From NCBI GenBank assembly GCA_036253495.1, contig GCA_036253495.1_4125.1: a DNA stretch of 64,000 bases. The stretch is one strand, 5' to 3'. Positions 2,945 to 61,289 of the stretch are shown here, piece after piece (the first letter of the stretch is position 1; the number at the start of each line of letters is the position of its first letter). The translations under genes and the position numbers were made by a program. The notes under the pieces are model-generated. The model ran no database searches. It had not been told where the DNA came from and saw only the letters and a program-made list of their open reading frames with translations. This stretch comes from a phage.

Positions 2945-4042
2945 ATGAACTTAGCAATTCTTCTAATACCAAGTTTGATAGTTGTTCTAATCATGAAGTT
3001 CAAATACCATACTGCCATAACAACAAAGGAATTGCTAATTCATACTGGAATTTGCTTTCTTGCAGCGGTGTTGGTATTGGGAACATCATACTTGATAAAC
3101 TACAGCCAACTTCGTGATGTTGAAATTCTAAATGGTCAGGTTACAGAGAAATACAGCCAACGTGAGAACTGCACATCACAATCAAGTTCTTGTAAACACT
3201 ATACTTGGCATGAGCGTTGCTGGACTACCTATGATTCTAAAGGTCGCTCACAACGTGAATGTGAATCTTATAAGGTATTCGACTATCCGTATGAGATTGA
3301 TTGGTACGTTAAAAGCACTGTTGGTAAGTTTGAGATTGAAAGGGTCAATAGACAAGGAACACAAACTCCACCACGCTGGCAAGAAGTGAAAATTGGTGAT
3401 TATGCAGCAGCAGAAAACACATACATAAATTATCTATTTGCAGATAAACACTCATTATTCAGTACTGAAGATTTGATTTCTATGTATGATAAAGAATATC
3501 TGGAATCTTTACCTGAATATCCAAGTATTAGTGATTATTATAAAACACACCACGTTATTAATAAAACTGATTACGATGTGAGTGGGTATGATGAATATTT
3601 ACGTGAAGTGTTAAAAACATTAGGTGCACAAAAGCAAGTAAACATTCAAGTACTAGTATATGATTATCATGACGTGAATTTTGTTGATGCAGTAACCTCA
3701 ATCTGGCGTGGTGGCAAGAAGAACGATGTTATTATGTTCTTTGGTATCAGTAATGATGGTGTCGTTAAATCATTCAATAGTACGTCATTCGCTAAAGGTA
3801 TGAATAATGAAGAATTGCATTCTAAAATGCGAATGGATGCGTTAAATGAAGTATTAACACTTGACTTACTTAAAGTTCAGGTTCATAATATACAGACTAA
3901 GTTTGAACGTCTGTCTAATAAAGAGTTTGAATACATGGCAGTTAAAATGGAACCACGAAAAGATGTTATGATTGCTGCATCGTTGATTCTCATTGTACTG
4001 TCGATTGTTGTTGGTCTTTATATGAAGGAAAATAATGTATGA
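2945..4042 (+). CDS. membrane protein (hydrophobic helices at both termini)
   Basis: ORF from ATG 2945 with AAAGG RBS; N- and C-terminal hydrophobic segments. Confidence 0.55.
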   Translation: MNLAILLIPSLIVVLIMKFKYHTAITTKELLIHTGICFLAAVLVLGTSYLINYSQLRDVEILNGQVTEKYSQRENCTSQSSSCKHYTWHERCWTTYDSKGRSQRECESYKVFDYPYEIDWYVKSTVGKFEIERVNRQGTQTPPRWQEVKIGDYAAAENTYINYLFADKHSLFSTEDLISMYDKEYLESLPEYPSISDYYKTHHVINKTDYDVSGYDEYLREVLKTLGAQKQVNIQVLVYDYHDVNFVDAVTSIWRGGKKNDVIMFFGISNDGVVKSFNSTSFAKGMNNEELHSKMRMDALNEVLTLDLLKVQVHNIQTKFERLSNKEFEYMAVKMEPRKDVMIAASLILIVLSIVVGLYMKENNV

Positions 4043-5744: not shown

Positions 5745-6098
5745 ATGTTGATTTACTTATGTGTGCTTTTGGTTTCATTGGTTGTAGCAGTATTAGTACT
5801 GAAAACTATTTCAACTATTCGTTCTAAAATTGATAAACATCAAGAAAATTCTGTTATCGATTTAGTTATGGATTTTCCTAAAATCAGTGCAGCCGTTGTT
5901 TTTGTTGTTATGTTATTTGGAACATACTGCGTAAAAGGCTACCTCTATGGTATGTATGATTGTAGCGTTCGTTCATATTCACAAGGTGTTGAAACTGACT
6001 ATAGCTGGTACTATGGTAAGTGTCGTTTTAAAAATGAACATGGTATTTGGGTAGATTTTGATAAACTACGCGGAACACCATCAGGTGATGAAGAATAA
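5745..6098 (+). CDS. small membrane protein
   Basis: AGGAGA RBS; two hydrophobic segments. Confidence 0.5.
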   Translation: MLIYLCVLLVSLVVAVLVLKTISTIRSKIDKHQENSVIDLVMDFPKISAAVVFVVMLFGTYCVKGYLYGMYDCSVRSYSQGVETDYSWYYGKCRFKNEHGIWVDFDKLRGTPSGDEE

Positions 6099-6592
6099 TG
6101 TTTGAATTTCCTGATGAACAACCAAAAAACTACATTGACTGTACTGAAGATGGATACACGCATATCAATATCTACAGTAAAGGGAAAACTAAGCTAGGGA
6201 GAGATTTATCTAATTTTTCTCCCCATAGCTTTACACTAGAACCATATGGATGGTTTCCTTCGGTTGAGTCTTTTTATTTCTGGTTCCTCACTGGACAACA
6301 GCATGAAGAACTTAGAAAGGTATCAGGAGCCGCAGCGAAAGCCGCTGCAAACAAATATATGCATGACCGTATAGAGATGACACCTGAGCGATTAAATGTA
6401 ATCCAGGATGCGATATGTGCTAAAATAATGCAGAATCCTGAACTTGCTGAACGATTGCGTAAAAGTACTCTGAAGTTTGAGCATTATTATTTGTATGGTG
6501 GTAAGATTATTGATGTTAGTGATGACCACCGTTGGTTTGTTCAGACCTTTGAGGATATCAGAACAGTACTGAAGGAGATGAATAATGGATAA
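6098..6592 (+). CDS. NADAR (YbiA-like) domain protein
   Basis: Motifs NIYSK, LSNFSP, WFPSVESFYFWF, ELRKVSGAAAKAAANKYM align to YbiA-type pattern as I recall it. Confidence 0.65.
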   Translation: MFEFPDEQPKNYIDCTEDGYTHINIYSKGKTKLGRDLSNFSPHSFTLEPYGWFPSVESFYFWFLTGQQHEELRKVSGAAAKAAANKYMHDRIEMTPERLNVIQDAICAKIMQNPELAERLRKSTLKFEHYYLYGGKIIDVSDDHRWFVQTFEDIRTVLKEMNNG

Positions 6593-6860
6593 AGTGAAAA
6601 TTTGTTGTCTTGAATGTGAGATGTTTGTCACTCCGTCTGATACAATGTTGACAATAGAGGAACAAGTCTTTCCATTAAGAGGTGGCTATATAAAATTACC
6701 AACACCATTTTATAGTACATCTTGTTCAATATGTGGTAATGAACTTGTTCTTCATGAGTTGAATTGCGTTAATATTATGGTTGTAAATGCAATTAGTTCG
6801 TATGCAAAAGAATTGGTTAGAAATGACAGTTCATTTGCACATTTATGGGGTTTCAACTGA
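6585..6860 (+). CDS. hypothetical Zn-ribbon protein (CxxC...CxxC)
   Basis: ORF with CCLEC and CSICG motifs. Confidence 0.5.
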   Translation: MDKVKICCLECEMFVTPSDTMLTIEEQVFPLRGGYIKLPTPFYSTSCSICGNELVLHELNCVNIMVVNAISSYAKELVRNDSSFAHLWGFN

Positions 6861-6861
6861 T

Positions 6862-7134
6862 ATGAATCATTCAAGAACTTGTTGGATATGTTACAATAAG
6901 GATGTAGATCATACTCTTGAACTTGAATATATGGAGATGAACTATGCAACAGACGTAAGATCATTTTCTGCTGGTCGTGTTATAATAAAAACACCACAAT
7001 ATCAGTGTTTGTGTTCAGTGTGTGGTGGGAATGGTGTATATCGCAATGAGGTTCAAATGGTAAATGATGCTATTGAGCTTTATTTTGGACAATATGTTTT
7101 GGATTTATATAAAAATGAACAAACTAACATTTGA
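6862..7134 (+). CDS. hypothetical Zn-ribbon protein
   Basis: ATG 6862; CWIC and CSVCGG motifs; likely paralog of upstream gene. Confidence 0.45.
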   Translation: MNHSRTCWICYNKDVDHTLELEYMEMNYATDVRSFSAGRVIIKTPQYQCLCSVCGGNGVYRNEVQMVNDAIELYFGQYVLDLYKNEQTNI

Positions 7135-7345
7135 TGCAACCCCAATAAATGAACTTTTAGTGCCAAGTGAAGGAAGCACTGTTAAAATGAACATGTACTG
7201 GATTGTCAAAGATGGAAACGTATTCAGACATAAAATAACAAAAGTATGGCAATGTAACAAAAATGAAAGTATTGTTAAGATGATAGCTGATACTGTAGAT
7301 GGTGCTGAAGTTGTTTTTATGCCGTATGCATATATTAAGGAATAA
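7115..7345 (+). CDS. hypothetical protein
   Basis: ORF, start uncertain. Confidence 0.4.
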   Translation: MNKLTFDATPINELLVPSEGSTVKMNMYWIVKDGNVFRHKITKVWQCNKNESIVKMIADTVDGAEVVFMPYAYIKE

Positions 7346-26025: not shown

Positions 26026-27714
<1,689 letters not shown>

Positions 27715-27717
27715 TTC

Positions 27718-27873
<156 letters not shown>

Positions 27874-27901
27874 CAAAACGAAATGATAATAGGAAATTAA
27901 A

Positions 27902-28087
27902 ATGCAACTTTTAATTCTTTCAATATTGTATATTATTATAATGGTTCCTATATCAATACGTTTAATTATACTTGAACGATTTTTATCGAAACATGGAAAT
28001 AGATCTATGATATTTGTACCAATCGGGCTTATATTGTTTGGTATATTTGCATTTATAATGGGAATTAACGCTACATTCATTTCATAG
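27902..28087 (+). CDS. small membrane protein
   Basis: ORF with two hydrophobic helices. Confidence 0.45.
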   Translation: MQLLILSILYIIIMVPISIRLIILERFLSKHGNRSMIFVPIGLILFGIFAFIMGINATFIS

Positions 28088-28096
28088 GAAACAAAT

Positions 28097-28578
<482 letters not shown>

Positions 28579-28585
28579 AAGAACG

Positions 28586-28618
<33 letters not shown>

Positions 28619-28619
28619 C

Positions 28620-28675
<56 letters not shown>

Positions 28676-28676
28676 T

Positions 28677-28807
<131 letters not shown>

Positions 28808-28808
28808 A

Positions 28809-28883
<75 letters not shown>

Positions 28884-28926
28884 GGTTCAAGAAGAAAACT
28901 GGGGTTTTTAACCTAACGAGGTCAAT

Positions 28927-29069
<143 letters not shown>

Positions 29070-29070
29070 A

Positions 29071-29201
<131 letters not shown>

Positions 29202-54524: not shown

Positions 54525-56063
54525 ATGCCAGGTAAATTCACTGACAAAAACGGCGGCAATATGGCTGGACACTCTGATAAATGGAGTGATGAGAATCGTC
54601 GCAAAAATAGTTTCCAAGCGGGGCAAGGTTCCCGTGGCTCTCGCAACCAAGGAACGGGAGAAGCTGGGAAAGCAAACACAGTTGCATCACAGGGTCTTGA
54701 TACTTCAAACATGTCCCAGCATGAAAAATTGAAGTACTTCAATAGTCTTGGTCTTTTAAATCCGCAGCAGAAGCAACAACTTGCTGCTCTGGATAAAGCA
54801 CAAGAACAACCTAAAGCAGCACCTGAAGCACCTGCACAGCCTAAAGCGGCTAATCCGGTAAAAGAACTAAGTGATAAACTTGGGAAGATCTTTGCTAACA
54901 AACCACAACTAATTCAAGGTATCGTAAAAGCACTTCAAGCGGTTCCTAAAGAACAACTCAAGGATAAAGCACAAGCTGTTCTTGATAGTATGAAAGGGAA
55001 TACCAGTACTGAACCAACTGAAGTATTCAGTACTATCATGCGTGCACTTGAAGGTAAGCCACAGGCCGATGATGATATTGAGTTTGATGAACCTGCACAA
55101 GAAGTAGCAAATCTTGACTCAATCGTTTCTACATTTGGAAAAATTGGTGCAGAAGATAAGACTAATGCACAACAAGTTAAGAATGTACAAGCTAAGTTAC
55201 AAAATCGTCTTGAAGGTAAAGATGAAAAGATTAAACTTGCAGCAGATGCGTTGAAGAAAGCATTAGAATCATATAAACCTGGTGAGAAATCTCGCTTCAT
55301 TACTGCAATGAATGCAGTATTCGGTGCAATGAAAAAGTATGAAGCTGAACACGGTGAGAAAGTAACTCCTGATGGATATCTCCTTCGAAAAGATGAAGAA
55401 GGTGCTGTTGACCAGAAGGACGCTGAACCAGACTATGGTGATTTACCGGATACAGTTGATATGGATGGTTACATTCATCGTCCTGATATGCAAGAATTTG
55501 GTTCAGACAAAGAAGGTTTTGAACATGCTATGGCTGTGTACAAAGCATTAGTCGATAATCCACAATATGCAAATAGTTTTGTAGATGAGTTTGATAGTGC
55601 ATGGAACAACTACCAAGACAAAGGATATGATTTCCCAGCAGAAGCAGCATTCTTTGAACTAGGTAAACTTCTTGCTAAAAATGGTATTAATGTTGGTTCT
55701 AATGGTGAAGCAAACACTTCAGAAATGGACGCTGAATTGGCTAAAGATCGTGAAATGACTGATAAGTCAATTCATGAACTACAAAAGCTAATGATGTGGA
55801 TTGCTGAAATTGGTAAGAAAGCTGGTGCAGATCCTAAGAGCATTAACAGCAATATTAGTTGGATTAAACATAAGGTTGATAACAATGCCCGTAAATTACA
55901 AAAGGCATGGACCGACCTAGTGAATGGTGCAGACGATGTTGATATCGATTCACCGGAAGCATACGAGTACGCATTGAACACACTTGATAACTCTTTCCAG
56001 GATTACGAAAATGGTAACGTAACTGATTGGGAAAAGGATATCATGCATAAGTACGGTAAATGA
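54525..56063 (+). CDS. Ala/Lys/Gln-rich low-complexity protein (possible virion internal protein)
   Basis: 512-aa ORF, GC-richer codon usage than neighbours; flanked by strong terminator-promoter cassettes. Confidence 0.6.
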   Translation: MPGKFTDKNGGNMAGHSDKWSDENRRKNSFQAGQGSRGSRNQGTGEAGKANTVASQGLDTSNMSQHEKLKYFNSLGLLNPQQKQQLAALDKAQEQPKAAPEAPAQPKAANPVKELSDKLGKIFANKPQLIQGIVKALQAVPKEQLKDKAQAVLDSMKGNTSTEPTEVFSTIMRALEGKPQADDDIEFDEPAQEVANLDSIVSTFGKIGAEDKTNAQQVKNVQAKLQNRLEGKDEKIKLAADALKKALESYKPGEKSRFITAMNAVFGAMKKYEAEHGEKVTPDGYLLRKDEEGAVDQKDAEPDYGDLPDTVDMDGYIHRPDMQEFGSDKEGFEHAMAVYKALVDNPQYANSFVDEFDSAWNNYQDKGYDFPAEAAFFELGKLLAKNGINVGSNGEANTSEMDAELAKDREMTDKSIHELQKLMMWIAEIGKKAGADPKSINSNISWIKHKVDNNARKLQKAWTDLVNGADDVDIDSPEAYEYALNTLDNSFQDYENGNVTDWEKDIMHKYGK

Positions 56064-56681: not shown

Positions 56682-57012
56682 TTATATGTATGAATTAAAC
56701 ATGATATCGTTTGTTTTATCGGGTATCGGATGGATGTACTATATGCTTGGGTATATTTTATTATTCTTCCGATACAATACATTCTACAAACGCTATTGGG
56801 ATGATGCACCAATTCACTTCTTCGCATTTGTATTCTTAACTATGGCAGTGGGTGAAGTACTGCTAACTGGTATCCAAAATACTGGTGGAATGATGTGCAC
56901 ACTAACAACATTCTTTGTTGTTTTTGGGACTGTAGTTTGGTTTTTCGCGTGGGGACTCTTCTCTTTGATTATGAAACTTGAGAAACTCCGAGACAAATTA
57001 CCAGAGCGTTGA
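56674..57012 (+). CDS. membrane protein
   Basis: ATG overlapping upstream stop; hydrophobic helices; start uncertain. Confidence 0.45.
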   Translation: MNDYMYELNMISFVLSGIGWMYYMLGYILLFFRYNTFYKRYWDDAPIHFFAFVFLTMAVGEVLLTGIQNTGGMMCTLTTFFVVFGTVVWFFAWGLFSLIMKLEKLRDKLPER

Positions 57013-57013
57013 T

Positions 57014-57041
57014 GAAAAGTATTTGACAAACTCAACTAGTA
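57014..57041 (+). promoter_or_regulatory. sigma70-type promoter with GTACTG-TATAAT extended -10
   Basis: TTGACA 57014-57019, TATAAT 57036-57041. Confidence 0.6.
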
Positions 57042-57097
57042 CTGTATAATGTTTATCAAGGGGATGAACTTCTCATCCCTACAATCGAGGAACTACC

Positions 57098-57652
57098 ATG
57101 ATTACTTTTAAGAAAACTGCCAACCACATCCATGAAATCTACATTAACGGTCACAAAGCTGGCCTTCTTCGTTTACTCGCCCATCATCCTGATGCTACCG
57201 TATCTGATAATGAACCTAAAGATTGGCGTGTCTTTTTCTTTGGGAAGTACAGTGATTTTCAAGTATCAAACCTGAAGAACATTCGTTCAGTATGCACGTT
57301 AACTGAAATTAAAGAAAAGTTAGCCAAAGCATTGAAAACTAATCCAGATGGTGTTCTTCCACCTGATAACTTTGTAGAGAAAGGATATGCCTTAGCTCAT
57401 TTCAAAGATGGTACTATTCAATCTATCAGTACTGAATATGAATACCAATGGACTGAGTACTTCACTTATGGCTCCCGTGATACTTTGATGGCTTCACGTA
57501 GTAAATTGGAAGAAGTACTGACTCGTATGAATGAACGCGAGCGTCAGTACTATGACAAACCAGAAATGTGGAGTTCAACTTACATTGACCGTATTGACTA
57601 TGTTATGATGACTCCAATCTTTGACACTGCTTACTATGATTCTTTGAAATAA
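57098..57652 (+). CDS. hypothetical protein
   Basis: GAGGAA RBS. Confidence 0.55.
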   Translation: MITFKKTANHIHEIYINGHKAGLLRLLAHHPDATVSDNEPKDWRVFFFGKYSDFQVSNLKNIRSVCTLTEIKEKLAKALKTNPDGVLPPDNFVEKGYALAHFKDGTIQSISTEYEYQWTEYFTYGSRDTLMASRSKLEEVLTRMNERERQYYDKPEMWSSTYIDRIDYVMMTPIFDTAYYDSLK

Positions 57653-57663
57653 GGATAACTTAT

Positions 57664-57840
57664 ATGAAACTACGTACTCGTAATCGACTGATGGATGCCC
57701 TATATCATGAACAGTGTTCATTAAATGAAGTAAAGCGTCAGTTAATGTACACATATCAGTTACCCGCTCGTGTTGCAAAACAACGTGCTAACGAATTGCT
57801 GAAAGAAGCAATCGAGTACTGGGAATCTGATTCGTACTAA
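57664..57840 (+). CDS. small hypothetical protein (58 aa)
   Basis: AAGGATAA RBS; below ORF-track cutoff. Confidence 0.4.
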   Translation: MKLRTRNRLMDALYHEQCSLNEVKRQLMYTYQLPARVAKQRANELLKEAIEYWESDSY

Positions 57841-57879
57841 TATTACGTGATATGTCACGTTAATTAAGTGAGGCGATAA

Positions 57880-58131
57880 ATGAAAATTTTATTAGTTCTA
57901 ATACTACTAATTGTTTTACCATTTACTTTAGTATCCCCTGAACTTGCATGGAATGTGTTTGTGTACTTAGTATGTACTATTGTAGTAAATGGTATCTTGT
58001 TCTTAGTTCTATTCATAAATGGAATAGGACACGGTGGAGGATGGACCAGTACTGCTGATATTGTACATAAAACCACTATGTCTTTATTTGTAGTGTGGAA
58101 TTTATTCTGGACTTGGTTTGTGTTCTTCTAA
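57880..58131 (+). CDS. small membrane protein
   Basis: GAGGCG RBS; hydrophobic helices. Confidence 0.5.
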   Translation: MKILLVLILLIVLPFTLVSPELAWNVFVYLVCTIVVNGILFLVLFINGIGHGGGWTSTADIVHKTTMSLFVVWNLFWTWFVFF

Positions 58132-58140
58132 TTAAAAAAT

Positions 58141-58512
58141 ATGAATATAGATTTGAAAGGTGCAACACGAACTGTCATACTCATTGGGGAATATGCTATC
58201 AAGATTCCAACCTTCAAAAGCTGGAAGTTATTCCTAATTGGAATGATAGCTAACCTCAATGAACGCTCATGGATGCAGTACTCCAAGCGTAGTGATAGTG
58301 GGATATGTCCTACTCTGTGGTCATCGCGAACTGGCTTAATAACAGTACAGAAACGTTGTAAGCCAGTACAACATAGGGGTTTGTTTTGGGTGGAGTTGAG
58401 TGCATTAGCATTGAATTCAGAGTTGAGTACTGACTTCTTCTATTCAGATGCGAAGCCAGAAAACTTTGGATATTTGAATGGTAAGTTAGTTAAGCTTGAT
58501 TATGGAGATTGA
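58141..58512 (+). CDS. mini protein-kinase-like ORF
   Basis: G-rich loop then AIK; later DAKPEN and LDYGD resembling catalytic-loop and DFG-type motifs; only 123 aa. Confidence 0.4.
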   Translation: MNIDLKGATRTVILIGEYAIKIPTFKSWKLFLIGMIANLNERSWMQYSKRSDSGICPTLWSSRTGLITVQKRCKPVQHRGLFWVELSALALNSELSTDFFYSDAKPENFGYLNGKLVKLDYGD

Positions 58513-58597
58513 TAAGTTTATGGAAATTGTTTTAATCGTTGCATTTGTTACATTAGTATGTACTACCATTTAATATATTTTACGAGGATAATGTGAA

Positions 58598-58927
58598 ATG
58601 AAAAAACTACTAACTATTTTAGTACTATCTGCTATTACGTTGACGGCTGGATGTACCGTTAAAAAAGATTTATTCCCTGTTGGTGGAAGTAAAGCTGATG
58701 GTGTTATTAGGCTTGGATACACATTCGACCAGCGATCTGAAATTCCATTAATTGATTTGGAACAGGGATTGTATGTAGCTACTAAACGATGCCAAAAGTG
58801 GGGATATTCAGGTGCTGAAATTTTTGGTGGCTCCACAACAATGTGTTCTGACCAACGTCCACTGGGGTGTGTTGCAACAAATGTCACATATGAATATCAA
58901 TGTACTGGTGACTTAAAAGAAAAATAA
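58598..58927 (+). CDS. putative lipoprotein
   Basis: GAGGATAA RBS; signal peptide with lipobox-like LTAGC. Confidence 0.55.
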   Translation: MKKLLTILVLSAITLTAGCTVKKDLFPVGGSKADGVIRLGYTFDQRSEIPLIDLEQGLYVATKRCQKWGYSGAEIFGGSTTMCSDQRPLGCVATNVTYEYQCTGDLKEK

Positions 58928-58937
58928 TCTTTTACAT

Positions 58938-58970
58938 GGGTTGACTTCGTTCAGCCCTTTTTGCTATAAT
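58938..58970 (+). promoter_or_regulatory. terminator-promoter composite cassette
   Basis: Hairpin GGGTTGA...TCAGCCC plus T5; TTGACT 58941-58946 and TATAAT 58965-58970. Confidence 0.65.
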
Positions 58971-58998
58971 TATTTCATCAAGACGAGAGGATGAATAC

Positions 58999-59436
58999 AT
59001 GACCCGCATTAACTTAGTACACGTTAAAGAACTTGCTGACCAACATCTGATGGCTGAATATCGTGAACTTCCACGTGTATTTGGTGCTGTACAAAAACAT
59101 GTTCAAGCACGTAAGCGTGTACGTGATTTCAAAATTAACAGTACTTATCTGTTAGGTTCAGGTCATGTAACATTCTTCTACGACAAGTTACTATACTTAC
59201 AGAAGCGTCATATTGATATTGTTAACGAATGTTTGCGTCGTGGTATGAAGATTCAAAACACTGAAGTAAACGACATTAGCGGCTTCCCTGCTGAGTTTTG
59301 TAATGACTACGTACCATCGGAGTCCGAGATTAAAACATCACGCGAGCGTTTGATTGAGAAGCTTCAGATGAAGCCTAAGTGGTATAAGTTTACTGATGTT
59401 GAGCTACCTATATATTATGTTGATATGATACAATGA
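58999..59436 (+). CDS. denV: endonuclease V (pyrimidine-dimer DNA glycosylase/AP lyase), T4 DenV homolog
   Basis: Near-identical N-terminal block MTRINL...[21 protein letters not shown] and [10 protein letters not shown] core match T4 endonuclease V as I recall it; GAGAGG RBS. Confidence 0.9.
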
Positions 59437-59660
59437 ATGATGAAGAATTCAAAAAATATGCGATTGCGAAGCTTGATTCATACAAGTCACGCGAAACGTA
59501 TAAATTTAATCCTGATAAAACAAAAGCATCTATAAGATGGATGATTAATTCACCCAAATATACATTTGACGAAAAATATTCATGGATAGTGCAATGTAGT
59601 GATTATGAGGATTTGGTATATAATATTAAACTGTGTTGGTATGAATACAACAATAAATGA
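59433..59660 (+). CDS. hypothetical protein
   Basis: ATGA overlap with denV. Confidence 0.5.
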
Positions 59661-59666
59661 TATAAG

Positions 59667-59699
59667 GGGTTGACTTCGGTCAGCCCTTTTTGCTATAAT
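59667..59699 (+). promoter_or_regulatory. terminator-promoter composite cassette
   Basis: Hairpin GGGTTGAC-TTCG-GTCAGCCC plus T5; TTGACT 59670-59675 and TATAAT 59694-59699. Confidence 0.7.
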
Positions 59700-59725
59700 C
59701 ATTTCATCAACTCAAGAGGTAATAC

Positions 59726-59965
59726 ATGAAACTATCTTTTATACGTTTAGCAGAATTCTTCGGTACTGATATAATTACTTTACAACAAATTGCAGACAAT
59801 ACTTCATTAAGCACACAAGAAGTACTTGACTTAGATGTGATAGAGTGTGATAATACTTCTATCGATTATAAAGAAGGTCTTGTCGAAAAAGATAAGATTC
59901 AGGCTAAGATTAATGGTGCTGGACGGGTTCAGTACTGGAAAGGGGTTTTAAGTAATGCGTGTTGA
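59726..59965 (+). CDS. hypothetical protein
   Basis: GAGG RBS. Confidence 0.5.
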   Translation: MKLSFIRLAEFFGTDIITLQQIADNTSLSTQEVLDLDVIECDNTSIDYKEGLVEKDKIQAKINGAGRVQYWKGVLSNAC

Positions 59966-61289
59966 TATTAAAGTACCTTTTAAATGTGAACCACTGAAAT
60001 TTGTCCAAGATTATGAAATATCTAAAACTATCGAATTTAGTGAAACCGCTTCAAAACTTGATATTAGTAGGAAAATTTTAGGTGAAAAGTATCCAGATGT
60101 AATATGGGATGATTTCAATCCATATAATATGGAAAAAGATGAAATGTGTAAAGACGAAATTATTGGCTTTGTTCGTATGGGAGTTCAAAATCTAAAATAT
60201 TATGCATATATATGTCAAAAATGCTCGACAAATTCAAAACAAAATGGTTTAGGTATATTTTTTACATTAAAAAGATATATTAAAAATAAAATTACATGTA
60301 TGTGCTCAAAAACACCACTATATACAAATTATCAACGAACTATACAACTTCATAATAAATCTATAAGTTTAGGTTATGTGTTTATTGGATATAATAAAGA
60401 AAAACAAATAACTTCGGATGCTAAAATAAAACTAGGATGTTATAATCATGGTATGTGGGATACTATAACAATAAATTCGTATAACACCAACTCACGCGGC
60501 TGTTCAAAATGTGCTGGTGTTCATTCACCATCACAGGAAGAAGCAAATGAAAAAATAAAACAAATTTGTAATGAAAATAAATTAGTATTTCAACCTTTCC
60601 TATATAAAAATAATAAAACTAAAATTTTTGTAAGATGTTTGGTATGTAATGAATCATGGGAGTCAAACTATTTTAAACTTTATACCATGAAATATGGTTG
60701 CCAACGTTGTGTAGGAACAAAAAAGTTAACTACTGAGATTTCTACAGGAATTGTATCAGATTATTGTACAAAATATAAGTTGACTTTCATTCCATTTGTG
60801 TATGATAATAATAAGATGAAAATATCTCTACGTTGTGATATTTGTTCACATGAATGGATAACACCATTCAATGGTATTACTAATAGAATGGGGTGTCCAA
60901 GATGTAATCCAACTGAAGCAATACGTATTTCTAAAGATTTAGATCCATTAATAGATGATTTTCAGCCGGAAAAGAAATTCCTTGAACTTGGAAAGATGCG
61001 ATTTGATAGATTCAGTCAACGATTAAACATTCTGTTTGAATATGATGGGGAACAACACTTTATTTCCAATAGGGTTTGGCATTCTACTACATCTAAGTTT
61101 GAATCTTCTCGTGAACGTGACAGTATAAAAACAGAATACGCAATAAAAAATGGATATAACTTCATTCGTATTGCGTATTATGAAGACCATATTGGAGCAT
61201 TGAAATCTTTCCTTAAACTCATTGAAGAGAATCCAGGAAAGCAAATCGTACAGATCTATGGTGATGTTCAAATCTTAGACAAGAAATAA
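59955..61289 (+). CDS. putative homing-type endonuclease with tandem Zn-ribbon repeats and C-terminal Vsr/DUF559-like nuclease domain
   Basis: Repeated CxxC modules (CQKC, CSKC, CQRC, CPRC) in about 45-aa repeats; C-terminal FDRFSQRLNILFEYDGEQHF...RDSIKTEYAIKNGYNFIRIAY. Confidence 0.55.
   Translation: MRVDIKVPFKCEPLKFVQDYEISKTIEFSETASKLDISRKILGEKYPDVIWDDFNPYNMEKDEMCKDEIIGFVRMGVQNLKYYAYICQKCSTNSKQNGLGIFFTLKRYIKNKITCMCSKTPLYTNYQRTIQLHNKSISLGYVFIGYNKEKQITSDAKIKLGCYNHGMWDTITINSYNTNSRGCSKCAGVHSPSQEEANEKIKQICNENKLVFQPFLYKNNKTKIFVRCLVCNESWESNYFKLYTMKYGCQRCVGTKKLTTEISTGIVSDYCTKYKLTFIPFVYDNNKMKISLRCDICSHEWITPFNGITNRMGCPRCNPTEAIRISKDLDPLIDDFQPEKKFLELGKMRFDRFSQRLNILFEYDGEQHFISNRVWHSTTSKFESSRERDSIKTEYAIKNGYNFIRIAYYEDHIGALKSFLKLIEENPGKQIVQIYGDVQILDKK

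Follow-up and report, generated by a model that had tools for sequence, protein, structure and literature searches.

NleH and OspG are active minimal kinases, described as lacking kinase subdomains VIII-XI (PMC12756638). Two full-size phage kinases, T7 gp0.7 (T7K) and JSS1_004, act early, phosphorylating host proteins and disarming defence systems (PMC13645617, PMC12345140). T7K-type homologues are also known from Asteriusvirus jumbo phages, G17 for example (PMC13645617). Here we describe a much smaller kinase-like candidate, encoded in a 64,000-nucleotide stretch of phage DNA (GenBank assembly GCA_036253495.1, contig GCA_036253495.1_4125.1), referred to below as the window. The gene is an open reading frame (ORF) at 58141..58512 on the + strand, with a product of 123 amino acids (14.0 kDa, pI 9.3). 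An earlier note made from the sequence alone had seen in it a possible minimal or truncated protein kinase, or a pseudokinase. Our analysis indicates that the protein very probably has a kinase-like fold, and that its family represents a kinase-like core cut to subdomains I-VII, found in a large set of phages and absent from Pfam.

Both the ORF listing and the sequence place the start codon (ATG) at 58141 and the stop codon (TGA) at 58510-58512. The translation begins MNIDLKGATRTVILIGEYAIKIPTF and closes FFYSDAKPENFGYLNGKLVKLDYGD. The motifs that had first drawn attention to it, AIK, DAKPEN and LDYGD, are all present as quoted, and lie on the + strand like the other elements of the ORF described here. 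K21 (58201..58203), in strand β3 at the end of A-I-K, is the equivalent of the VAIK ATP-binding lysine. Its presumed salt-bridge partner is E41 (58261-58263), located in an αC-like helix (residues 28-43, 58222..58269) that carries the family signature W-x-x-F-L-x-G-x-x-A-N-x-x-E. Residues 103-108, D-A-K-P-E-N (58447..58464), correspond to the catalytic loop (HR)D-L-K-P-E-N; the D-x-K-P-x-N form typical of Ser/Thr-specific kinases is thus present as D103-A-K105-P-E-N108. D-Y-G-D, residues 120-123 (58498..58509, with DYG at 58498-58506), is a DFG-type Mg-binding motif. It forms part of L-D-Y-G-D (residues 119-123), D120 being seventeen residues from D103, and the chain stops one residue past D-Y-G. 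The protein-kinase-like (PKL) active-site set K21, E41, D103, N108 and D120 is therefore complete. The description of a G-rich loop ahead of A-I-K was overstated. The β1-β2 loop, K-G-A-T-R-T-V (residues 6-12, 58156..58176), does occupy the position of the kinase glycine/phosphate-binding loop, but its K-G-A-T-R stretch holds a single glycine, G7, and a second one, G16, sits in the β2-β3 turn.

The fold was predicted with AlphaFold2 from an alignment of 14 sequences, which gave a model of high confidence (predicted local distance difference test, pLDDT, 90.2; predicted template modelling score, pTM, 0.80). The model contains strands β1 (2-4), β2 (10-15), β3 (18-23, with K21), β4 (58-61), β5 (68-71), β7 (109-112) and β8 (115-118), and helices at 28-43 (with E41), 79-92 (αE-like) and, a short one, 97-101; the catalytic loop spans 103-108 and D-Y-G 120-122. 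These elements follow the kinase order: an N-lobe of β1-β5 with αC, a hinge, the αE-like helix, the catalytic loop, the β7-β8 hairpin and D-Y-G. The N-lobe has the five-stranded antiparallel sheet, with αC between β3 and β4, that defines PKL proteins, and the modelled elements correspond to Hanks subdomains I-VII. The helical C-lobe of PKL proteins, including αF, is missing from the model, which has no activation segment and no αF-αI helices, the chain ending at DFG+1. A family member of the subfamily with an E-K-S catalytic loop (described below), modelled from its own 54-sequence alignment, showed the same order of elements (pLDDT 92.6). When the PDB was searched with Foldseek, the ORF model matched TTK/Mps1 and Legionella Lpg2603 kinases. 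In BFVD it matched phage proteins, among them one of Ralstonia phage RP12 labelled 'protein kinase domain-containing protein' (E 5e-9), as well as giant-virus Ser/Thr kinases. Structure prediction, which the earlier note had proposed as a check, returned kinase-fold matches and a nucleotide-binding N-lobe, and not the structure without such an architecture on which that note would have given up its reading.

Residue conservation was assessed in 148 divergent family members, 28-94% identical to the ORF. R10, K21, E41 and D120 are invariant in this set, and G7, V12, P23, F31, G34, N38, G65, G110 and Y121 are conserved in at least 90% of it. K105 is kept in 139 of 159 representatives (87%). The other catalytic-loop positions vary in a coupled manner: positions 103, 105 and 108 read D-x-K-x-x-N in 80 sequences, the ORF among them, and E-x-K-x-x-S in 50, while mixed combinations are rare, none occurring in more than four sequences. 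The E-K-S type accounts for 94 of the 108 new matches of a profile-based search. Coupled variation of this kind is expected of a working active site and argues for one. Since the three residues on which every active kinase relies for ATP and Mg are invariant and the change in the catalytic loop is compensated, the pattern suggests a working rather than a decayed active site. The motifs are more than a chance likeness.

The short length of the protein is a property of the family. The only library family matched by the ORF was PHROG 4301, function not assigned (E = 5.5e-43, 148 bits; ORF residues 2-122 on profile positions 40-167 of 225). A word-indexed search returned 14 homologues of 102-127 amino acids. 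An exhaustive search with a hidden Markov model (HMM), covering 1.84 billion representatives of clusters formed at 50% identity, detected at least 1,208 representatives at E<=1e-3, 644 of them at E<=1e-10. With more than 1,200 such clusters the family is large, yet Pfam has no annotation for it. Almost all members are 110-135 amino acids long. A D-[YF..]-G motif could be recognised in 137 of the listed representatives, and in 103 of these the chain stops directly after it or one residue later. Because this length and this end point are so widespread, they represent the family architecture and not a truncation; of the two possibilities first raised, a minimal kinase holds at the level of fold and motifs, and a truncated one does not. 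Moreover, the gene is under purifying selection: comparison with the 121Q orthologue gave dN = 0.039 and dS = 0.39 (dN/dS = 0.10) for non-synonymous and synonymous changes. Family members are generally basic (median pI 9.05). A few have N-terminal extensions or low-complexity C-terminal tails unlike a kinase C-lobe. The longer relatives include proteins of 267 amino acids (Kc263) and 205 amino acids (P0137). The Kc263 protein was considered as a possible full-length kinase and rejected, its tail after DYG being of low complexity and devoid of APE or αF motifs. A 1,073-residue candidate relative (P0036) was discarded as spurious: it is a tandem-repeat protein, with a unit of about 66 residues containing 'SSDFGFQG', and matched the profile in 16 stretches.

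The ORF can be compared with four groups of known kinases. Like the Hanks-type Ser/Thr kinases (PF00069; TTK/Mps1, PknB), it has the N-lobe topology, the K/E pair, D-x-K-P-E-N and D-[FY]-G. Unlike them, it has no HRD His-Arg, no subdomains VIII-XI and no significant Pfam or hhalign match, and its phosphate loop combines one glycine with an invariant Arg where Hanks kinases have GxGxxG. The features of subdomains VIII-XI (APE, the αF DxWxxG motif, the αH/αI Arg) are all missing, as the chain ends at residue 123.

Like OspG and NleH, the family members are small and stand alone, have no activation loop and would serve a parasite against the host. Prophages carry the NleH genes as cargo, and the Salmonella homologue of the present family likewise lies in a prophage moron slot. 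The solved OspG chain, however, has 169 residues and extends beyond the DFG-type motif; the helices past it make up the rest of a small C-lobe and are the site of E2~ubiquitin binding. These C-terminal E2~ubiquitin-binding helices are not found in the ORF, the two families share no sequence homology, and their catalytic-loop sequences differ. Finally, the targets of OspG and NleH are eukaryotic, whereas those of the ORF family would be bacterial.

RIO, Bud32 and Ark1 also have a compact kinase-like fold without an activation loop, and some of these kinases act on RNA or ribonucleoprotein substrates. Unlike the ORF, they keep C-lobe helices past the metal-binding Asp, and they have no sequence match to it. 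The matched chains are longer (173-269 residues for Ark1, Rio1 and Rio2; Bud32 is part of a 519-residue Kae1-Bud32 fusion), and the catalytic loops of this group have no Lys at D+2.

T7 gp0.7 and JSS1_004 (PHROG 2828) belong to another family than the ORF (PHROG 4301). Indeed, the PHROG 2828 kinase HMM did not match the ORF, and scanning it against PHROG at E<=1 returned phrog_4301 only. T7K also differs from the ORF in its DPV motif, in the full size of its kinase domain and in a shutoff/DNA-binding domain at its C-terminus. Asteriusviruses carry a separate T7K-like kinase (PMC13645617; Sharanji paper, PMC11895373). We considered whether 'another protein kinase' of the Sharanji paper could be the present protein, but it is a different gene, and the Sharanji orthologue of the ORF is labelled hypothetical.

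We favor the explanation that the product of the ORF is a minimal phosphotransferase of the protein-kinase-like type, a free-standing protein of 14 kDa with a macromolecular host target. That the protein is a catalytically active phosphotransferase, whatever its class of substrate, appears likely; the complete explanation, host target included, we consider about evenly poised. In the proposed mechanism, K21 would bind the ATP phosphates jointly with the G-x-T-R loop, E41 keeping the lysine in place; Mg2+ would be bound by N108 and D120; and D103 and K105 would move the γ-phosphate to a hydroxyl group. In classical kinases such as PKA, all ATP-contacting residues precede DFG+1. Loss of the part beyond this point would leave an open cleft with no built-in peptide-docking platform, so that specificity would be low, or provided by self-association or by the target. 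The guess at a protein substrate comes from the D-x-K-P-x-N loop, which is the Ser/Thr protein-kinase form. The gene would be an accessory one, mobile among phages and expressed early from a host-type promoter, as suggested by the σ70 consensus upstream of its unit; its product would phosphorylate host components for takeover or counter-defence. A more ambitious version of the explanation is tentative, and on balance we doubt it: the protein would be the smallest self-sufficient kinase, about 120 residues comprising subdomains I-VII to DFG+1, folding and catalyzing without αF, and would act as a promiscuous, open-cleft early effector on host defence or housekeeping components, spread horizontally by many phage lineages.

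Several observations weigh against the explanation that we favor, beginning with sequence comparison. The ORF has no match in Pfam (E<=10), NCBIfam or PADLOC (E<=10). PDB sequences gave no match to the ORF in phmmer, nor to the 14-sequence profile. With the family profile, TTK took the top 22 places among PDB sequences, with non-significant E-values of 0.03-0.08. The TTK alignment falls exactly on the catalytic loop and the DFG motif (profile stretch 'vDaKPeNfGylngklvkiDYG'), with SDLKPAN of TTK opposite D-A-K-P-E-N; it confirms the register of the active-site residues and to that extent speaks for the explanation. Likewise, hhalign against CDK2, PKA, PknB and ERK2, whose sequences were entered by hand, aligned the catalytic-loop/DFG stretch only, with E-values of 0.011-0.078 and probabilities of 0.7-3.7%. 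None of the 148 family members matched PF00069. The only recurrent kinase-related Pfam hits, PIP49_C (four members, best 1e-3) and ABC1 (two members, best 4e-4), were all sub-threshold. Thus, the profile search that the earlier note had proposed as a check produced no significant match to a kinase family, and with statistics this weak homology to Hanks kinases cannot be claimed from sequence alone; the support is structural. We keep the ORF out of PF00069 and call it kinase-like by its predicted fold and active-site residues.

Other difficulties concern the structure and the function. The αF helix is regarded as the organizing scaffold of all protein kinases; as the ORF has none, a partner may be needed for its stability or activity. 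The geometry of the K21-E41 pair and of D120 is deduced from topology and alignment. About one third of the family has Glu in place of the catalytic Asp and Ser in place of the Mg-binding Asn, a form of the catalytic loop that is unusual for active kinases. Substrate class and a counter-defence role are suggested by genomic context and by the precedent of T7K and JSS1_004. As far as the literature was searched, no biochemical data were found for any member of the family; the literature search also revealed no study of the family, of a kinase of about 120 amino acids or of a phage mini-kinase.

The protein might instead be a small-molecule kinase, as are the APH, choline, Kdo and WaaP-type kinases of the same fold; its substrate would then be a metabolite, a sugar or lipid of the envelope, or an immune signal derived from a nucleotide. 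All the parts that dock protein substrates (activation segment, P+1 loop, αF-αG) are missing from the ORF, the invariant R10 and the conserved αC face (W28, F31, G34, N38) could form a site for a small ligand, and one homologue lies in a cluster with a Tad2-like gene. However, Lys at Asp+2 is a signature of Ser/Thr protein kinases that small-molecule kinases typically lack, in sequence the family aligns best with TTK, a protein kinase, and no metabolic or pathway gene is consistently adjacent in the loci examined. We regard this alternative as rather unlikely.

The missing αF scaffold, the E/S form of the catalytic loop in a third of the family and the lack of a significant profile match to active kinase families would also suit a non-catalytic nucleotide binder or pseudokinase that serves as a sponge, sensor, scaffold or inhibitor of a host protein, and phage proteins that act as sponges or inhibitors are typically of this size. 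A pseudokinase was one of the options that the earlier note had left to choose from, and we keep it as an improbable rival. Indeed, pseudokinases usually lose at least one of the key residues. Across more than 140 divergent members of this family, by contrast, K21, E41 and D120 never vary, and 87% keep K105. Furthermore, the change from D..N to E..S is coupled, which points to preserved chemistry.

Some homologues lie close to genes for RNA metabolism, raising the idea of an RNA kinase that would act on the 5'-OH or 2'-OH of RNA or tRNA in repair or modification, like archaeal Ark1/ArkI. In Dhakavirus JS10 the homologue (2977-3345 of the locus analyzed) ends 1 nt before rnlB (RNA ligase 2), and an RNA ligase is also listed under the homologue match in the tblastn row of Phage NC-G. 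In Tequatrovirus G4507 the homologue (3001-3381 of its locus) lies between ipI and a tRNA cluster, just upstream of the latter. Ark1-like folds are among the structural matches, and the family is basic. However, both of these T4-type positions are known variable regions, so that adjacency may be accidental; the ORF and the tRNA genes of the window are 30 kb apart; the Asteriusvirus, lambdoid, Mu-like and N4-like contexts examined have no RNA-repair gene next to the homologue; and Ark1 scores no higher than dozens of protein kinases. An RNA kinase is thus quite improbable. Finally, a decayed fragment of a full-length kinase, or a chance likeness of motifs in a non-kinase, could be imagined from a length below half of a normal kinase domain, the lack of a Pfam match and the few longer relatives (Kc263, P0137), but is effectively refuted by the length and end point shared by hundreds of clusters, the dN/dS value, the two high-confidence models with a kinase fold, tails in the longer relatives that are not a kinase C-lobe, and the lack of a second gene piece in the window.

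If the minimal phosphotransferase that we favor is active, it would lower the known size limit of the protein-kinase fold and be a candidate for the smallest kinase-like enzyme known. It would imply that a core of subdomains I-VII can stand alone without the αF-αI scaffold, which bears on kinase evolution, and would provide a 14-kDa chassis for engineering. A second kinase-like family, much smaller than T7K and far more widespread, would extend the theme of phage kinases that disarm immunity broadly, and would supply candidates that can be tested directly. Should the protein prove to be a nucleotide binder or a small-molecule kinase instead, this would still be the first function for a big family of 'hypothetical proteins'.

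The region around the ORF, checked over 57000-60000, shares 98.8% identity with Escherichia phage A4 and about 94% with 121Q, PBECO4, phAPEC6, G17 and other Asteriusvirus jumbo phages. By this identity, the window comes from an Asteriusvirus jumbo coliphage, with a genome of about 350 kb, and not from the T4 background against which the gene had first been viewed; that assumption was probably prompted by a denV-like endonuclease V gene (58999-59436, Pfam Pyr_excise). The orthologues of the ORF are A4_221 in phage A4 and gp215 in 121Q. In all listed genomes of the genus, including Sharanji, the ORF is labelled 'hypothetical protein' or left without annotation. Homologues in a few deposited genomes (Kc263, AH04, PAKlein3, pEa_SNUABM_5) bear the label 'serine/threonine kinase'.

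The ORF is the fourth of five genes in a co-directional unit (57098..58927, + strand). A perfect σ70 consensus, TTGACA-16-TATAAT, found by pattern match only at 57023..57050 (+), is probably the early promoter of this unit. The three genes before the ORF encode two proteins of unassigned function (phrog_22186, 57098-57652; phrog_38182, 57664-57840) and a hydrophobic protein of 83 amino acids (57880-58131). The fifth gene (58598-58927) encodes a YecR-like lipoprotein of 109 amino acids with a lipobox-type N-terminus (PF13992, E 9e-22). This lipoprotein family is otherwise bacterial, and the gene could be a moron of the phage, with a function at the envelope. The position 3' of the ORF is empty in A4, holds an unrelated 89-residue ORF in 121Q and the YecR-like gene here, indicating that the stretch from the mini-kinase gene to the denV promoter is a slot for variable cargo. 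The unit is closed by a terminator-like GC hairpin, GGGTTGACTTCGTTCAGCCC, followed by a T-run (58938..58957, +). It overlaps a near-consensus promoter, TTGACT-18-TATAAT with a TG extension (58941-58970, +), just 5' of the endonuclease V gene. The whole hairpin/promoter element (58938-58970) is conserved in A4 and 121Q.

In other phages the family occupies accessory positions, of the moron or early type. In Salmonella lambdoid prophages, the homologue lies between an Rz-type lysis gene and the small terminase subunit Nu1. The homologue that accompanies a Tad2-like gene is inside a block of small genes. An Aquimarina prophage carries its copy upstream of terminase, a Mu-like phage next to Gam, and the N4-like phi G17 within a run of small hypothetical genes. 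An all-against-all BLASTP of the ORFs from 20 IMG/VR loci revealed no neighbor gene common to different phage groups, and a scan of all window ORFs with the HMM revealed no paralogue or second gene piece. Together with the variable 3' slot, these results led us to reject a split gene or a co-encoded partner. A scan of genome contigs, whose search pattern was narrow, gave no confirmed relatives. Among T4-like records only about ten hold a homologue, so that the gene is sporadic in that group (JS10 and G4507 being examples). The G4507 copy shares 72-78% of its amino acids with those of coliphages of the rV5-like (A5-4) and N4-like (phi G17, Moonfish) groups, a sign of recent horizontal exchange. 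High identity across unrelated coliphages and sporadic presence in T4-like phages mark the family as a horizontally exchanged accessory gene.

In one family member of 390 amino acids (P0247, at 6001-7173 of its locus), the mini-kinase domain is joined in frame to a fragment of Phage_min_cap2, a minor capsid protein. This protein was seen in two samples but forms one cluster; it lies among toxin-antitoxin genes in a bacterial region, the remnant of a cryptic prophage, where a deletion probably created the fusion. A virion-delivered effector, which the fusion might suggest, was rejected as too weakly founded on a single cluster from such a remnant.

Three further features of the window were recorded, all on the + strand. 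A cluster of five tRNA genes (Gly-TCC, Ser-GCT, Met-CAT, Asn-GTT and Thr-TGT) at 27076-29191 shows no association with the ORF. The 512-residue ORF at 54525-56063, directly 5' of a run of small genes of unassigned function, matches virion structural families of PHROG (phrog_20398, E 3e-201). Finally, the 444-residue ORF at 59955-61289 contains CapR-homology and treble-clef zinc-finger domains, and matches homing/HNH endonucleases in PHROG. Its counterparts vary in length (1,698 nt in A4, 1,464 nt in 121Q), and it is likely a mobile homing endonuclease.
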